Part shown: piece by piece, positions 16,130 to 63,752 of the stretch
Numbering within the stretch: position 1 is the stretch's first letter
Layout of the letters: each line of letters begins with the position of its first letter
Assembly (NCBI RefSeq): GCF_041146345.1
Contig: NW_027191404.1
Coordinates: 1,116,001-1,180,000 of the forward strand
Length of the DNA stretch: 64,000 nt
Origin: Neodothiora populina
Taxonomy: Eukaryota
Reading direction: 5' to 3'
Translations under genes and position numbers: made by a program
The notes under the pieces: generated by a model
Databases searched by the model: none
What the model was told of the DNA's origin: nothing
What the model saw: the letters and a program-made list of their open reading frames with translations, nothing else

Positions 16130-17796
16130 ATGCCTTCAATCACACTCGCTGCGCGGACTGCCGCTCATGTGGCACGCAATGGCACAAGCGTGAGTCTTCA
16201 TTTGGTTCAGATGTCTACATAGTATCACTAACACATTACATCAGCCTTTCAGCCTCGCTCGCGCTTTCTCCGCCTCAGCTAGAAGAAGAGAGATCAACAA
16301 GGTCTTGCCTTCGGCTGCCGAAGCGATCAAGGACATGAAGAGCGACAGCACCCTTCTATGTGGTGGCTTTGGTCTCTGTGGTGTTCCAGACACACTGATC
16401 AATGAGGTCGTGAAGAACCCACAACTCAAGGGCATCACTGCTGTCTCAAATAATGCTGGTGTTGTCGGATCAGGTTTGGGTTTGTTGTTGGCATCGAAGC
16501 AGATCAAGAAGATGATCGCTTCGTACGTCGGCGAGAACAAGCTGTTCGAGAACATGTATCTCAAGGGAGAGATTGAGCTGGAATTGACCCCCCAAGGTAC
16601 CCTTGCAGAGCGCTGCAGAGCAGGTGGCGCAGGCATCCCTGCTTTCTACACCCCGGCTGCCGTCGGAACCGTCGTGCAGACTGGTGAGCTTCCTCTCAAG
16701 CACAACGCGGATGGTTCAGTGCAACAATACTCGGTTGCAAGAGACGTCAAGGTCTTCGACGGCAAGGCCTACGTGATGGAGGAGTCCATCAAGGCCGACT
16801 ATGCCTTCATCAAGGCCTGGAAGGCAGACAGACTGGGTAACGTCCAGTTCCGCTTCGCCGCTCAGAACTTCAACGGCGCAATGGCTCGCAATGCCAAGAT
16901 GACCATTGTGGAAGCCGAGAACATTGTCGAGCCTGGCGACATTGACCCAGTCGCTGTGCACGTGCCCGGAATCTACGTCAACAGGGTCATCCAGAGCACC
17001 ACCGAGAAGCAGATCGAGAAGGTGGTCAACTCGAAGACCCCCGAGGAGATGAAGGCAGGCGCACTCGGAACCGGTGCAACAGCTAGCAAGCGTGAGAGAA
17101 TCGTCAAGCGCGCAGCAAAGGAGTTCAAGAACGGCATGTATGCCAACTTGGGTATTGGCATGCCTATGGTAATTATCTTTGACACTCTACCTCTAATCGA
17201 ATATGTGCTAACTCTGCTCCTAGCTTGCACCTACCTTTGTCGATCCCTCCGTCGAGGTTCAACTGCAATCCGAGAACGGCATCTTGGGTCTCGGACCTTA
17301 CCCAGCCAAGGGCCTCGAGGACGCAGATCTCATCAATGCAGGCAAGGAGACAGTGACGCTCCAGAAGGGTGCTGCTTGCTTTGGATCTGACGAGTCATTC
17401 GCCATGATCAGAGGAGGCAAGATTGACTTGACCATCCTCGGTGCCATGCAAGTCAGCGCCAAGGGTGATCTCGCCAACTGGATGCTTCCTGGAAAGATAA
17501 AGGGCTTCGGTGGAGCCATGGACCTTGTGTCCAACCCCTCGGCCACCAAGGTCGTTGTCACTATGGAGCACACGGACAAGAAGGGCAACCCCAAGATCTT
17601 GAAGCAATGCGAGTTTCCATTGACCGGTAGGGCTTGCGTCTCGAGAATCATCACCGAGCTCGCTGTGTTCGATGTCGACTTCACCAACGGCCTCACTCTC
17701 ATCGAGCACGCCGAGGGTGTGACTGTCGATGAGATCAAGTCCAAGACCGAGGCTCCCTTCGTTGTCTCATCAGACCTCAAGGTCATGCAGCAATGA
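16130..17796 (+). CDS. Succinyl-CoA:3-ketoacid CoA transferase (mitochondrial SCOT)
   Basis: ATG 16130 with a presequence-like N-terminus. Introns 16190-16244 and 17169-17223. Motifs [34 protein letters not shown]. Confidence 0.96.
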
Positions 17797-57835: not shown

Positions 57836-59333
57836 AGGACAGCGATTGAGCATTAACGAAATACCATGACATTTTCCAGATCATAAACCATGTTACTCTG
57901 CACATGGTGACCATTTGCCGTAGATGTCAGACTGTTCAGTTCCTCGGATCATGTACAGAAGTAGTGCTGCATGCGGCAGAAAGAAAGTGGAATCTCGAAG
58001 GAGAGGAATGCTAAGATAGTGAAGATGGTGCTGGCTTGCATGGTAGGGCACAAGTCACCATGCATGCAGGATGCACTAACACAATTACTGGATCTCTGAC
58101 AAGTGATTGGGCAATGTGATGACTTGGTGATTGGACTTAGAACCACACCGGGCTGGAAGCTCCAGGGTCCTGAGCCAAGTGGCCAAGCACGAAGCCCCCG
58201 TGCTGGCGAAACACGACTAAGCCAAGCTGATACACTTGTCCAGCGTCTGTGGAAGAAGGGCCTTCCGGTCTACTTGGCCGGTGGGCGTTTCAGGTTTCAC
58301 CAGCAGTGTTTCCAGCTAAAATTGATCGCTGGCGGTGGAAAGATGGAGTTTGATCGACCTCCTGGAGTCACAGTGCACAGGTAGAAAATAGCCAGGAGAA
58401 TGTGCTATGAACCAATGAAACTGCATGGTTGCGTATTTGGCGTAAATTGCATGGCGGCTCCTGGTGTGAAGGCGGTTGTCTGGTGTGCCCCGCCTTCAGC
58501 AGTGTGCAGCATAAACCACCCACTTTCACGCCTGACTGCATTGATTGCTGACTCTCTGTGTCTTGTCAACCAATGCTTTGATACGTTGCTTTTCCCACTC
58601 CTCATCCTTTGCCTCTCTCTGCTGAAACGACCCAGCTGAGCTCTGTCCCATCGACCATCTTGTGTTGTAGATACAAACATAGAAACCATCCGAGTCTATC
58701 CTCAGCGTACACAGCTCGAGCCGAGTTCCTGTGTGGATACATAAACAAAGGTGCGGGCCGGGAGTTTTATGGGGGATAGCTAGAGCTAGATGCAGAGCAG
58801 CGCAGCACAGCACAGCACAGCACATTATTTCCAAGTACTTTTAGCATACTTTAAAGCACGAGAACTAAGCGATACAAGCCCCGCAGTCGTCGACGTCTGA
58901 GCTTCCTCGCCCTCGTTCACGCCCTTTGTGCAATTCGAGCATCGGAAGATACAAATAACACTCGCCGGAAGTGGAAGAGAGCACTGCCTGATTCAGTCGG
59001 ACGCTCAGGTCTACTTTGTTTCTTTCTGTCTACAGTCCGCGGCACAAAGCAAAGAAAGCAATCTGCCATCCAGGGCGCTCACACTTCATCTTGCTTGACC
59101 TGACAATCCCAGCGCCAGACCGCCCTTCAACAACCCTTACCCATCCATCCGTGCTTGTGCTTGCGCATTCCAGTTCCAGCTCGGATTCCACCTCATACCT
59201 TCCCGTCTCGCTGCGCCAGTCGCCGGATCCAGAAGCTCGTCCGCACGTAACTTCCTCCTTGGCTGCCTGACAGGACGCACAATTGTCGCAAAGAAAAAGA
59301 AACCTTGCCGCTGGTCGACTGCAACAACCTCTT

Positions 59334-59552: not shown

Positions 59553-60732
<1,180 letters not shown>

Positions 60733-60839
60733 TCATGCTTGTCTTGGTTATTTCTCAATCTATTGACATATATTTGCTATTTAAAAAGTACACTATATTT
60801 ATATCAGCAGACGACGAACTCATACTGATCAGTCGATAG

Positions 60840-61134
60840 CAATGCCTCGTTTCCGTATCGCCGTTGCGCGCCCGTTATTGTTCCTATCTACCAACCAACC
60901 ACTCATACCCAGACCCTTGCCAGTCCTTCCAATGCCAAGGACGACAACATCAATGCTCCTGCCGTAACCCTTGAACAGCATGACGGCCACAATTCTCTCG
61001 ACCACGATGTGACGAGTGGTGCTGTGCAGGCGTCCAAAGATGTGGACCACAACCAATCTCGTCCCTACACAACTCCATTGTCTGACCTTCCTATCAACCG
61101 TCCGGCTGCTGATGAACCCAACGATATGGCCTGA
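60840..61134 (+). CDS. Candidate alternative terminal exon of the MAPK (97 extra residues)
   Basis: Donor CG|GTAATC at 60729 overlaps the stop; branch ACTGAT 60824-60829; acceptor TAG 60837-60839. The join is in-frame and open to TGA 61132-61134. Confidence 0.5.
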
Positions 61135-61986
61135 AGGCGCGCGGGCGTGTCTGGGGACATCAAGAGGCCATGGTTCAGAACATTGTGGCCCTGGCTTTCT
61201 TAGACATGTCCACGTTGTCACATGCACCCCATTTTTTCTTTCTTATTGCGGCTCATTCCGAATTACATCTGGGCTTGCTATCTTGGCAGATCGTCGACAA
61301 AGGCTCAGAGGGTGGTTCCTGTCGACGAGATAGTCTCAACAACATACCCAAGACGCAATCAGAGAGTTGCACAACACGCGATTCCTTTTTCCAGCGCATT
61401 GCACTTCATCGGAAAATCCAAGAAGAGCAATGATGACGACAACAACAGCAATGGCAGCGGGCATCTATTTGTTGTTTTCCTCAAGAAAGACATTGTTGCG
61501 AGAAGTTATTTTCTTTCTTCCCTTTTCCTTTTGATCCTCATGTCAGGGATTTGCTACTACACTGGGGGCCCAGAGGATGTTCGGTTTTTGGTCTCCTTTT
61601 CTTATCCTCGAAGATTTCTTGCATCTGGTCGTATGTATGCATCGAGCGACAGGAGTAGGTTTTTTTTTCCGTGTCTTTTGCTTTCCAGACCAGAAATTCG
61701 AGCGTTCAAATGACCAACACAAGAAGTCAATCTTCTCTTTTTGCAGTGATAATGAGTGAAATTGGTAGTGTGCCTACGATACGTGGTTCGTATTCGAATG
61801 ATTCTTGTGATTGTAATCCCCGCTAAGGTTACGGACTTGAACACTCCGAATAGTCGACTGGCGAGGGTGAAAAGGGACGTTATATGTATATGTACAATTC
61901 CGAACCAGCCCAACAAAACTCTCGACTATATCTCGCTGTTCAGAAAACTTCGGCCATGATCAAACAGCACTCATAGAACAATCGAA

Positions 61987-63752
61987 TCAAGTGACTTTAG
62001 TCCCATTACCGGGCAAGGCAACCCTGAACAGAGCAAAAGGGCGCTTTCTATCCTCCGTGCCAGGCCAGATCATGGGCGAGAAACACAATTGATTGACTAA
62101 AGACGAAAAGGTCAGTAACGCGGCCCTTCCATACACAATTCCCTTTCCCCCCAATGGGACAAAAAAAGAAGGGAAGCAGAAGAGGAGAGAAGAAAACTCA
62201 CCAGTGAAATAAAGATAGCGTCCGGCAACACTCATGGTATCAACCCAATTAATCCTGGGATCGCGCACAAACACCCCATCAGTGCCATTGGCGGGATTGA
62301 ACACCCCTATCGCATTCTGCTCCGCGATGCCATGATAGATGAACCCGTTGGAGTCCGTCTCGTAGCCGTCGCTGACGCCCTTTTCGCCGCGCGTCTGCAC
62401 GCTGCCTTGGGCCAGGGCTTCGGAGAAGGCGCTGTTGTCGCGTAGCCGCGCTGTCGGAATAGAGTACAGGATTCGAGAGCCCACGCCGCCGAAGTAGAGG
62501 TCTTCGCTGTCCGCGGAGAGGGCGATGCCGTCTTTTTTTTGTGTATTGAATGTTAGTGATTGAAAACTGGGGTAGCAGAGAGAAAGGGGATGGATAATAG
62601 GGGATTGGAACTGACCTGCGCCGAAACCGAGATAGTTCAGTGGTTGGCCTGCGCTGTACGAGTAGAGCGGACGGCCCCAGACGTAGCCTACGAAGCCTGT
62701 CGTCGAGGCGACGTACTTGCTTCTGTCCAGGTGTCTCCAGCTCTCGCCCGTGCCTAGGTCGACTGTGATGAGGCCGGTGCGGCCTTCTAAGGAGGAGTCG
62801 GTGATGTAAGCCACGCCTTGGCCGCTGGCTGTGATGTTGATTCGCAGGTCGAAGCGGACGTCGTTGAGGTACGAGTCTGCGGGTGCTACTGTGGTGGGGA
62901 AGACGATTGTCTTGAAGACGGTGTCGTTTGACAGATTGATGCCTACTAATTTGGGGCCTCCGTAGCTTGCGGGTACCACAGTGCCGTTGGGAGACATTAC
63001 TGAGGTGGGAATAGGTTGTCAGTTTCATTGTTCTTCCGAATGTCCATCTCAAGCAACCGTCAGACAGCAGGAAGACATTGTGCATGTCTCATAAATTCGG
63101 AAGGGAGGGCCGAGTCATTTTTCTGAGTATTTGATGATGCACAATTGGGAGAGGTTCACAATATACCGATCAACTCGCATCTCAACACAAAGAGAGCAGT
63201 TCAAACTCACCACGACCAGTATCAAGTACCCATAACCGATCCGCGGAATCAACAACAACACTCTGCACGCCAATAAAGTGATTCTGATAATTGGCTCCAC
63301 TCGGCGGATAGGTGCTCATGTTGATCGCGCCACCAGGAGGACTGTTCCAGTCCACGCTGGGATATGCTCTCTCTGAGCTGTTCGCGGTGAGTTCAGCAAC
63401 GGTGTATTTGCCATTGGTGCCGTTGTTGGTGTTATTCATGTCCAGACCGCCTGTAGGAAAGAGATCAGAGGGTGATAAGAATGATAGAACTGAAGAGCGT
63501 GATATCTTGAGTGCACGATGTGTACAGGAGACGAGGGGTGGCTGCGAGAACTATTGTCATAAGAAATGACTTACCAGGGTAATTAGAGAACATGCGTCCA
63601 GTCGACGAAACGGCAATGCCCGTCGGCCATTGATCATAGTACAAGTGAACCAATTCGAGAGGTGGTCCTTGTTGCCCCGAGTCGGTGATGAGTTGGCTAG
63701 AACCCAAGAAGGGCAGCAGCATGGCTCCCGCATAGAGCGATGTCGGCCACAT
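61987..63752 (-). CDS. Secreted major royal jelly / yellow-family beta-propeller protein
   Basis: Signal peptide MWPTSLYAGAMLLPFLGSS, then WPTGIAVSSTGRMFSNYP, IGVQSVVVDSADRLWVLDTGR, YLNDVRFDL, AYITDSS, DGIALS, RDPRINWVDT. Four introns. Confidence 0.93.

Follow-up and report, generated by a model that had tools for sequence, protein, structure and literature searches.

A candidate C-terminal exon behind the stop codon of a Fus3/Kss1-type MAP kinase gene in Neodothiora populina and related Dothideomycetes

Hidden C-termini in described systems and a possible counterpart at the kinase locus

Freitag and co-workers are said to have described peroxisomal isoforms of fungal glycolytic enzymes in 2012. 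Such isoforms carry cryptic C-terminal signals that arise through alternative splicing or stop-codon readthrough, as set out in the consulted sections of Stiebler et al. (2014; PMC4207609). A related arrangement is described here for a mitogen-activated protein kinase (MAPK) gene of Neodothiora populina, located in a stretch of 64,000 nucleotides (nt) of contig NW_027191404.1 (RefSeq assembly GCF_041146345.1, positions 1,116,001 to 1,180,000 of the forward strand) that is called the window below and numbered from its first letter. In this gene, a candidate splice donor overlaps the canonical stop codon, and behind it lie a putative tail exon, an internal in-frame stop and a conserved terminal peptide.

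As in the peroxisomal isoforms, a short C-terminal peptide hidden behind a stop codon or an alternative splice would be carried by a minor isoform. However, the peroxisomal isoforms use splicing or readthrough per gene, whereas here both would seem to work one after the other on a single gene. The peptides also differ in kind: the type 1 peroxisomal targeting signal (PTS1) follows an SKL-type consensus, to which the MAPK peptide endings WLS, WLL and WMA do not fit. The protein, moreover, is a signalling kinase.

Among MAPKs, the mammalian ERK1c and ERK1b have a new C-terminus that alters their partners and localisation (consulted sections of the review PMC8699841). ERK1c resembles the fungal gene in that the C-terminus of an ERK-type MAPK is set by the fate of one intron with an in-frame stop. 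However, intron inclusion makes the variant end in ERK1c and cuts into the common docking region, whereas removal would add a tail after an intact kinase in the fungal MAPK. The two C-termini have no sequence relation, and fungi do not occur in the ERK review (PMC8699841). A further likeness is to RNA editing in Sordariomycetes, where the kinase genes FgDBF2 and PUK1 likewise have a conserved stop, in frame or terminal, and behind it a short extension that changes the protein (consulted sections of PMC13123824 and PMC11156358). According to the same sections, this editing acts on UAG with U at position -1 and is not known in Dothideomycetes, and the DBF2 extension lacks recognisable structural motifs, whereas the window has UGA and an extension that ends in a conserved peptide. 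What appears to be distinct here is a donor over the canonical stop combined with a second, conserved internal stop and a non-PTS1 peptide, on a core Fus3/Kss1-type MAPK.

In the tail-bearing clade, the gene is proposed to contain a third intron, with a 5' splice site (CG/GTAA) formed jointly by the "canonical" stop and the Arg codon before it. If the intron at 60729-60839 is retained, or if cleavage and polyadenylation occur inside it, translation would end at the TAA and yield a kinase of 353 amino acids (aa) ending in EIMR. If the intron is removed, the Arg would be kept (CG + C) and a 97-residue tail, fast-evolving and probably disordered, would be added to give 450 aa. Some ribosomes would then pass the TGA at 61132-61134, producing a third form of about 473 aa with a Trp-rich terminal peptide. 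From sequence comparison we infer splicing in the window organism, its partial nature, the bypass of the stop and a role for the tail. Within this clade, the tail is very probably a genuine coding exon joined by splicing; for the model as a whole, in which the window organism also passes the internal stop, our confidence is moderate. The regulatory scheme in full is offered as a tentative possibility: three nested C-termini set at two levels, first by splicing (or its competition with intronic polyadenylation) and then by a leaky stop that would dose the terminal peptide, itself a signal for docking, localisation or stability; the arrangement would be conserved throughout a clade of Dothideomycetes.

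The proposed terminal intron and the putative tail exon

The window gene is a Fus3/Kss1-type (Pmk1/MpkB-like) MAPK. Joining 59553-59659, 59723-60648 and 60704-60732 gives a stop-free coding sequence (CDS) of 353 aa with the C-terminus ...QLIYDEIMR. Exon 2 holds a protein kinase domain (Pfam PF00069, expectation value (E) 3.7e-59, 200.7 bits against a cut-off of 31.7) and shares 93-99% identity over 308 aa with proteins whose sources call them MAP kinase, Pmk1 or MAK-2. The best match is the MAPK of Cladosporium sp. NU13, and the best matches together point to a Dothideomycete-like ascomycete. Two Fus3/Kss1-type traits are present, the TEY loop and a C-terminal L16 segment ending in ...LIYxEIMR, and an LIYxEIMR-type end also occurs in 66 of 80 related metagenome loci.

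An initial annotation, made from the letters of the window, read the end of the gene as ATG CGG TAA TC with a GT donor at 60729, followed by an AT-rich stretch of 111 nt, a branch site ACTGAT and an acceptor TAG, and all of these elements were confirmed in the sequence. ATG CGG TAA TC occupies 60724-60734 with the GT at 60729-60730, and the branch-like ACTGAT (60824-60829) lies 10 nt before the acceptor TAG (60837-60839). The stretch 60729-60839 thus shows a GT donor, a branch-like CTRAY, a YAG acceptor and a fungal intron size, and its guanine-cytosine (GC) content is 0.32, compared with 0.53 in the CDS and 0.54 in the tail. Homologous terminal introns in relatives measure 81-226 nt, each with a branch-like site and a YAG. 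The window junction TAG/CAAT (Arg-Asn) is identical in three Cladosporium-like loci (L016, L024 and L030), and the annotated proteins P0001 and P0009 likewise read EIMR-N. The closest locus, L004, is 75% identical to the window over 60692-60811, which comprises the last exon and the intron.

The evidence that carries the tail exon comes from 80 metagenome loci of the same kinase, of which 66 show an EIMR-stop end and 53 have at least 450 nt downstream. Among the 66, the last Arg codon is CGG in 36 and is followed by TAA in 27. The initial annotation had pointed out that the final CGG is unique among the Arg codons of the window gene (one of 20 in the 353-aa CDS) and suggested selection for the donor. 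This suggestion fits the relatives, where CGG makes up 13 of 17 terminal Arg codons but 25 of 284 Arg codons in the kinase core, as counted in 17 non-identical loci with an uninterrupted core that are not phylogenetically independent. A donor G at intron position +1 would call for such a position-specific bias. Furthermore, a terminal peptide with the consensus [KR]x[PA]W[YFHW]x[TM]xxxW[LIM]x, or more narrowly [KR]x[PA]W[YF]xTxxxWL[LS], stands directly before a stop in 16 of 23 CGG-TAA loci, to which L059 is added as a locus truncated by the end of its contig. None of the 30 loci in which the gene ends in another context has it (all counts for loci with 450 nt or more downstream). This association was put to a Fisher test, with loci that are not phylogenetically independent. 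The 16 loci represent 13 non-identical sequences, the window counted in, and all 13 have a CG/GTAA donor and an in-frame acceptor leading into a tail open reading frame (ORF) that reaches the peptide.

In a tree of kinase nucleotides from the window and 37 of the 80 loci, hand-picked with near-duplicates left out, all 15 tail-bearing rows fall into one 19-row clade (Shimodaira-Hasegawa-like approximate likelihood ratio test, SH-aLRT, 99), which points to one origin of the tail. The remaining four rows are L001, L002, L012 and L013; in L001 the contig ends just after the stop, so that it is not assessable for the peptide. Donor, acceptor and open frame, for which the initial annotation had looked to an alignment of orthologous loci, are conserved in the clade, with a ratio of nonsynonymous to synonymous substitution (dN/dS) of 0.23-0.44 in the tail.

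Coding-type evolution of the tail was also read from gap events, counted in nucleotide alignments made without protein guidance for seven Cladosporium-like and two Aureobasidium-like loci. Gaps in the tail exon were multiples of three in 15 of 17 and 6 of 6 events, respectively, compared with 7 of 16 and 0 of 2 in the intron and 7 of 34 and 1 of 4 in the 300 nt past the final stop. In relatives, pairwise dN/dS was 0.23-0.44 upstream of the internal stop; downstream of it, the values were 0.17-0.59 except for a single pair at 1.24. By these measures, relatives have a tail under coding-type evolution. This evolution, which extends to their terminal peptide, is a direct observation, as are the sequence features and their conservation.

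Several annotated proteins already carry tails. Among the 120 best MAPK matches, ten have 122-136 extra residues straight after EIMR, namely eight Aureobasidium clusters (P0002, P0003, P0005-P0008, P0010 and P0011; 477-507 aa), Cladosporium sp. NU13 (P0001; 479 aa) and Cryoendolithus antarcticus (P0009; 486 aa), and two further matches have shorter, dissimilar tails. Because the tails of the long models start directly after EIMR, the donor in these models is the same one. The tails of the eight Aureobasidium clusters can be aligned in frame (39-91% identity) and all close with ...TPW[YHFD]QT[ST]Q[RH]WL[LI]; they have the same terminal peptide as the window but, unlike the window, no internal stop. 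The tails of P0001 and P0009 start with N, as in the window, whose own tail sequence is not detectably similar to any annotated tail. A search with the P0001 tail returned P0001 as its only match. P0001 ends exactly at the internal stop (...EMDC), which leaves the extension behind it unannotated, and the long models are automatic. The initial annotation had called the tailed isoform undescribed; this held for the literature, in that a search found no description of a tailed Fus3/Pmk1 isoform in fungi, but not for the databases, since the annotations of Aureobasidium spp., Cladosporium sp. NU13 and C. antarcticus carry tails.

In the window itself, excision of 60729-60839 joins CG and C into an Arg codon and opens a stop-free frame of 97 codons up to the TGA at 61132-61134, as initially annotated. 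The only Met of this tail is its penultimate residue, again in agreement with that annotation, and the SP and TP sites that it had named are one of each. The likeness to a docking motif that it saw in an RR..VIV stretch was not substantiated; what some relatives share with the window is no more than a YRR or KR stretch. Motifs shared with the Cladosporium-like and Cryoendolithus tails are the N start, YRR and [NS]APAV (NAPAV in the window). Codon-usage log-odds per codon are 0.151 in the tail frame, the best of six, compared with at most 0.027 in the other frames and 0.242 in kinase exon 2. As a chance control, orthologous loci whose last Arg codon lacks the final G were given any YAG 40-400 nt downstream and the best in-frame ORF, and 6 of 19 also reached at least 97 codons. 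Taken alone, the donor and open frame of the window are not beyond chance; it is the comparative evidence that lifts the tail above it.

Three side observations concern the tail. A basic site near its start, Y[RH]..RR[IV]S[AD][ST], is conserved in L016, L024, L030, L034-L038 and L009, and its RRxS resembles a basophilic kinase site; the window reads YRRCA at this position, without the Ser. The tail of L036 has an extra in-frame TGA (...YVDP*DPQY...) where relatives have Cys, which may point to a sequencing error, to decay of this copy or to a further stop that is bypassed. On the minus strand, a 137-codon open frame (60829-61242) lies antisense to the tail exon. A gene on this strand was considered and rejected, as it has only a sub-threshold DUF790 match (E 0.19) and the variation pattern fits the plus frame; the antisense frame probably arises as a side effect of coding on the plus strand.

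The internal stop and the terminal peptide

The initial annotation ended the tail frame at 61134. The frame is indeed open to the TGA at 61132-61134, but it runs on for 22 more codons to the conserved peptide and a TAG at 61201, and the biological end of the window tail frame is probably 61203. A profile drawn from 12 loci other than the window, covering the final 16 residues of each, was searched against 2660 six-frame pieces of the 64-kb window; 61135-61200 was the sole significant match (E 2.3e-4; next 0.22) and aligned to the end of the piece.

An in-frame stop 22-32 codons before the end occurs in 11 full sequences and in the truncated L059, giving 12. It is TGA in the window, L004 and L009 and TAG in L003, L059 and the seven Cladosporium-like loci, and it is absent from the Aureobasidium-like L006 and L008 and from L011. 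The final stop is at the same place in 13 of 13 sequences, with varying identity (TAG, TGA, TAA). Within the terminal peptide (13 codons, 13 sequences), a minimum of 15, 17 and 30 changes is needed at the first, second and third codon positions, respectively (chi-square p 0.04), and variation is synonymous at Pro, Thr, Leu, Ser and Arg codons. This pattern in relatives suggests that the peptide is translated. Because it keeps a fixed distance from the free C-terminus, the peptide may be a docking, localisation or stability signal gated by the stop. AlphaFold2 was applied to the long Aureobasidium form P0010 with a 32-row alignment; the model was poor (mean predicted local distance difference test score, pLDDT, 51.6, tail below 50), with the terminal peptide as a low-confidence helix at 468-476, and nothing is concluded from it.

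Two splicing routes around the internal stop were considered and rejected. For a second intron over the stop, none of 10 sequences share a frame-preserving GT..AG span, and two have idiosyncratic ones. An acceptor just behind the stop is possible in the window (TGAAG/G, in frame), but L004 and L009 have none, and at the Cladosporium-like TAG the frame is not kept. In the simplest reading of the sequences, passage of the internal stop takes place at translation or earlier.

UGA is the leakiest stop codon. The 12 stop-bearing sequences show one trait expected of programmed readthrough, namely a conserved in-frame stop followed by a conserved protein-like ORF to a conserved second stop. The stop contexts are UGA AGG in the window, UGA CGG in L004, UGA CAU in L009 and UAG followed by GAA, GGA or GAU in the others. 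Readthrough would fit UGA and UAG alike; near-cognate readthrough of UGA seems the likeliest route, and editing to UGG less likely. As a side observation, GAAGGCGCG follows the internal stop both in the window (61132-61146) and in L037 and L059, with an offset: read by eye, TAG GAA GGC GCG GAC in the latter corresponds to C TGA AGG CGC GCG GGC in the window. This looks like a loss of 2 nt and a gain of 2 nt (CG) that kept the stop and the downstream frame. The features are collected in Table 1.

Table 1. Positions of the kinase exons, the proposed intron and the elements of the tail in the window
Feature	Position	Strand	Remarks
MAPK exon 1	59553..59659	+	ATG to ...GAYGVV, then donor GTGAGT; joined exons stop-free
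MAPK exon 2, kinase core with TEY activation loop	59723..60648	+	Pkinase E 3.7e-59; 99% to Cladosporium sp. NU13 MAPK over 308 aa
MAPK exon 3 to proposed donor	60704..60728	+	...LIYDEIM and CG of last Arg codon
Last Arg codon CGG and TAA, stop of unspliced 353-aa form	60727..60732	+	CGG TAA in 27 of 66 orthologous loci
Proposed third intron	60729..60839	+	111 nt, GC 0.32; donor GTAATC 60729-60734, acceptor TAG 60837-60839
Conserved AT-rich element TTGACATATATTTGCTATTTAAAAAGTAC in intron	60763..60791	+	Alignable in window, L004, L006 and L008; flanks unalignable
Putative tail exon, first part	60840..61131	+	C completes Arg codon, then 97 codons NASFPYRR...NDMA
In-frame TGA within tail frame	61132..61134	+	Context TGA AGG CGC GCG G
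22-codon extension RRAGVSGDIKRPWFRTLWPWLS	61135..61200	+	Same frame as 97-codon ORF; profile match
Predicted long RNA hairpin	61139..61215	+	From 5 nt past TGA; -41.8 kcal/mol, z -3.5; status uncertain
Conserved terminal peptide KRPWFRTLWPWLS	61162..61200	+	Within 22-codon extension
Final stop TAG	61201..61203	+	Directly after terminal peptide

Alternative readings and significance

A number of observations weigh against a spliced tail with a bypassed stop. In a search of sequencing runs with the stretch, no run was on record as RNA; run X1 (share 0.05) gave a single 179-nt contig, identical to 60708-60886, that is unspliced, probably DNA and uninformative on splicing, plus an unrelated 38-nt piece. 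The 97-residue tail of the window has no match in 1.84 billion representative proteins and none among longer proteins, its best E against the other tails is 0.89, and Pfam holds no family for it. Because no relative is detectable, the homology of this tail rests on position, junction, two short motifs and the terminal peptide. The pre-stop tails of the window and L004 are saturated (proportions of synonymous and nonsynonymous differences, pS 0.75 and pN 0.53), so that no selection test is possible for the lineage of the window. Three assessable loci inside the tail clade are without the peptide: L002 has CGA TAG, which is no donor, and no terminal peptide within its 423 nt downstream, possibly through joint loss of donor and tail, and in L012 and L013 the GT donor is kept and the peptide was not seen.

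Further points on the same side concern the stop and the donor. None of the stop contexts is UGA CU(A), the motif shown to drive readthrough in fungi and animals (consulted sections of PMC4207609). The predicted hairpin takes in all of the post-TGA extension together with the final stop, and of 200 shuffled sequences one folded equally well; it is significant in the window alone and not conserved, with z values of -1.6 in L004, -1.6 in L024 and about 0 (up to +0.8) in four others. The consensus fold of the seven Cladosporium-like loci is weak (alifold, -10.8 kcal/mol), and across clades a conserved RNA structure behind the stop finds no support. The 22-codon extension of the window has a codon-usage score of -0.074, which is no signal in a piece too short to judge, and the 32 post-stop codons of the Cladosporium-like loci show no significant codon periodicity (22, 25 and 32 by codon position; p 0.37), only the end of this stretch appearing clearly constrained. 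The GTAAT donors at 17169, 52172 and 53203, which the initial annotation had listed as used elsewhere in the window, do look like genuine, ordinary introns (CTAAC-type branch, YAG 52-56 nt downstream). Finally, a phase-2 GTAA or GTGA donor automatically yields an in-frame stop, so that the stop after the donor does not prove selection for a short isoform.

The last two points favour a constitutive intron without any switch, in which the intron would always be removed, the long protein would be the kinase, and the short annotations would be errors. The purifying selection on the tail in relatives is in line with this reading, and the stop would need no selection of its own. However, the terminal donor is without G at position +5 in 13 of 13 sequences, whereas 12 of 12 second introns from these genes have it, and the terminal intron measures 81-226 nt compared with 53-68 nt for intron 2. 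The absent +5 G is weak evidence for regulated splicing, because GTAAT-type donors seem to serve ordinary introns in the window. Conserved non-coding elements within the intron would fit a second use as 3' untranslated region (UTR) or poly(A) region. In the seven Cladosporium-like loci (L016, L024, L030, L034, L036, L037 and L038), the first 33 columns of the intron (GTAACGTCCCTTTAGAGATACCCAAAAATACA...) include 30 that do not vary, the remainder of the intron is 40-75% conserved, and coding synonymous divergence (dS) is 0.5-1.3. This invariance far exceeds the needs of a donor and may reflect a regulatory or 3'-end element. The AT-rich element at 60763-60791 is a possible polyadenylation or regulatory signal of the short form, where the poly(A) reading presumes yeast-type UAUAUA and A-rich elements. 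Because the intron holds this conserved element, polyadenylation upstream of 60840, named in the initial annotation as refuting its proposal, may instead be part of the mechanism. The missing +5 G, the longer intron and the conserved non-coding elements are hints of partial splicing, and a constitutive intron is considered rather unlikely.

A second reading accepts the spliced tail and lets it end at the TGA, with the 22 codons behind as an untranslated relic of a stop-free, Aureobasidium-like ancestral tail. Stop-free versions do exist in L006, L008 and L011, the stop context of the window is no known readthrough motif, and the post-stop stretch as a whole lacks significant codon periodicity. 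A relic is at odds with the retention of the peptide, the frame and the place of the final stop in 11 stop-bearing sequences, with L059 agreeing. These sequences span several lineages whose tails are otherwise unalignable and whose pairwise dS runs from 0.5 to more than 1. Furthermore, the 32 post-stop codons of the seven Cladosporium-like loci contain no indel, compared with 27 of 34 gaps past the final stop that are not multiples of three, and the window copy still reaches its significant profile score. This reading is judged unlikely.

The internal stop could also be removed by fungal adenosine-to-inosine (A-to-I) editing of UAG or UGA to UGG (Trp), perhaps in a stage-specific manner as in Fusarium. 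Correction of premature stops and stop-loss editing of UAG are frequent in Sordariomycetes, including the kinases PUK1 and DBF2, and the editing strongly prefers U at -1 (consulted sections of PMC11156358 and PMC13123824). Nine relatives carry UAG and thereby match this preference, and the predicted window fold places the UGA in a 4-nt hairpin loop. However, the window, L004 and L009 have UGA, in which the A is preceded by G, and the alifold consensus sets the Cladosporium-like UAG in a stem and not a loop. In the consulted sections of the same sources, the documented cases of editing come from Sordariomycetes and a single Pezizomycete, and none was detected in Aspergillus nidulans or Botrytis (PMC11156358, PMC13123824). 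Editing thus seems to fit the UAG-bearing relatives better than the window, and as the general explanation it is quite unlikely.

A chance ORF in the 3' UTR, with an unused donor and with long database models that are gene-predictor artefacts, was already disfavoured. It would agree with the chance control, the absence of relatives of the window tail, the open minus strand and the lack of a run recorded as RNA. It is very unlikely in view of the frame-preserving indels and dN/dS below 1 in two clades, the conserved junction and terminal peptide, the occurrence of the tail only together with CGG TAA and the position-specific CGG. It is highly improbable that 61162-61200 acts as an RNA element in the 3' UTR, or that the tail forms a small gene of its own, with neither belonging to the kinase: the window has a strong predicted hairpin over the block and L004 an ATG just before the peptide, but variation is of the synonymous type, the stop position is fixed, the hairpin is not conserved, no ATG is conserved, and the tail ORF opens at the acceptor in all sequences, with no Met before the penultimate residue in the window.

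In the neighbourhood of the gene, a convergent gene on the minus strand (61987-63018) has a Major royal jelly protein (MRJP/yellow) domain (E 3.4e-20), and the stop of this ORF lies about 780 nt away from the TAG that ends the MAPK tail. A short (GCACA)n microsatellite (58800-58825) lies about 730 nt upstream of the MAPK start codon.

Fus3/Kss1/Pmk1-type MAPKs act in mating, invasive growth and plant infection and are among the most studied fungal signalling proteins. They are viewed as bare kinases of about 355 aa that draw their specificity from partners. The Dothideomycetes include many plant pathogens, black yeasts and Cladosporium. If the model of a spliced tail with a bypassed stop is true, a hidden C-terminal exon would place a further level of regulation on the kinase itself throughout a Dothideomycete clade, and the entries of this MAPK gene in databases would in many cases be truncated or wrongly ended. 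A core pheromone and pathogenicity MAPK would then have a gate made of splicing plus readthrough, overlooked since annotation stops at EIMR or at the internal stop. The conserved stop together with the conserved peptide would make this gene a clean candidate for functional stop bypass in a filamentous fungus beyond the peroxisomal-targeting cases.

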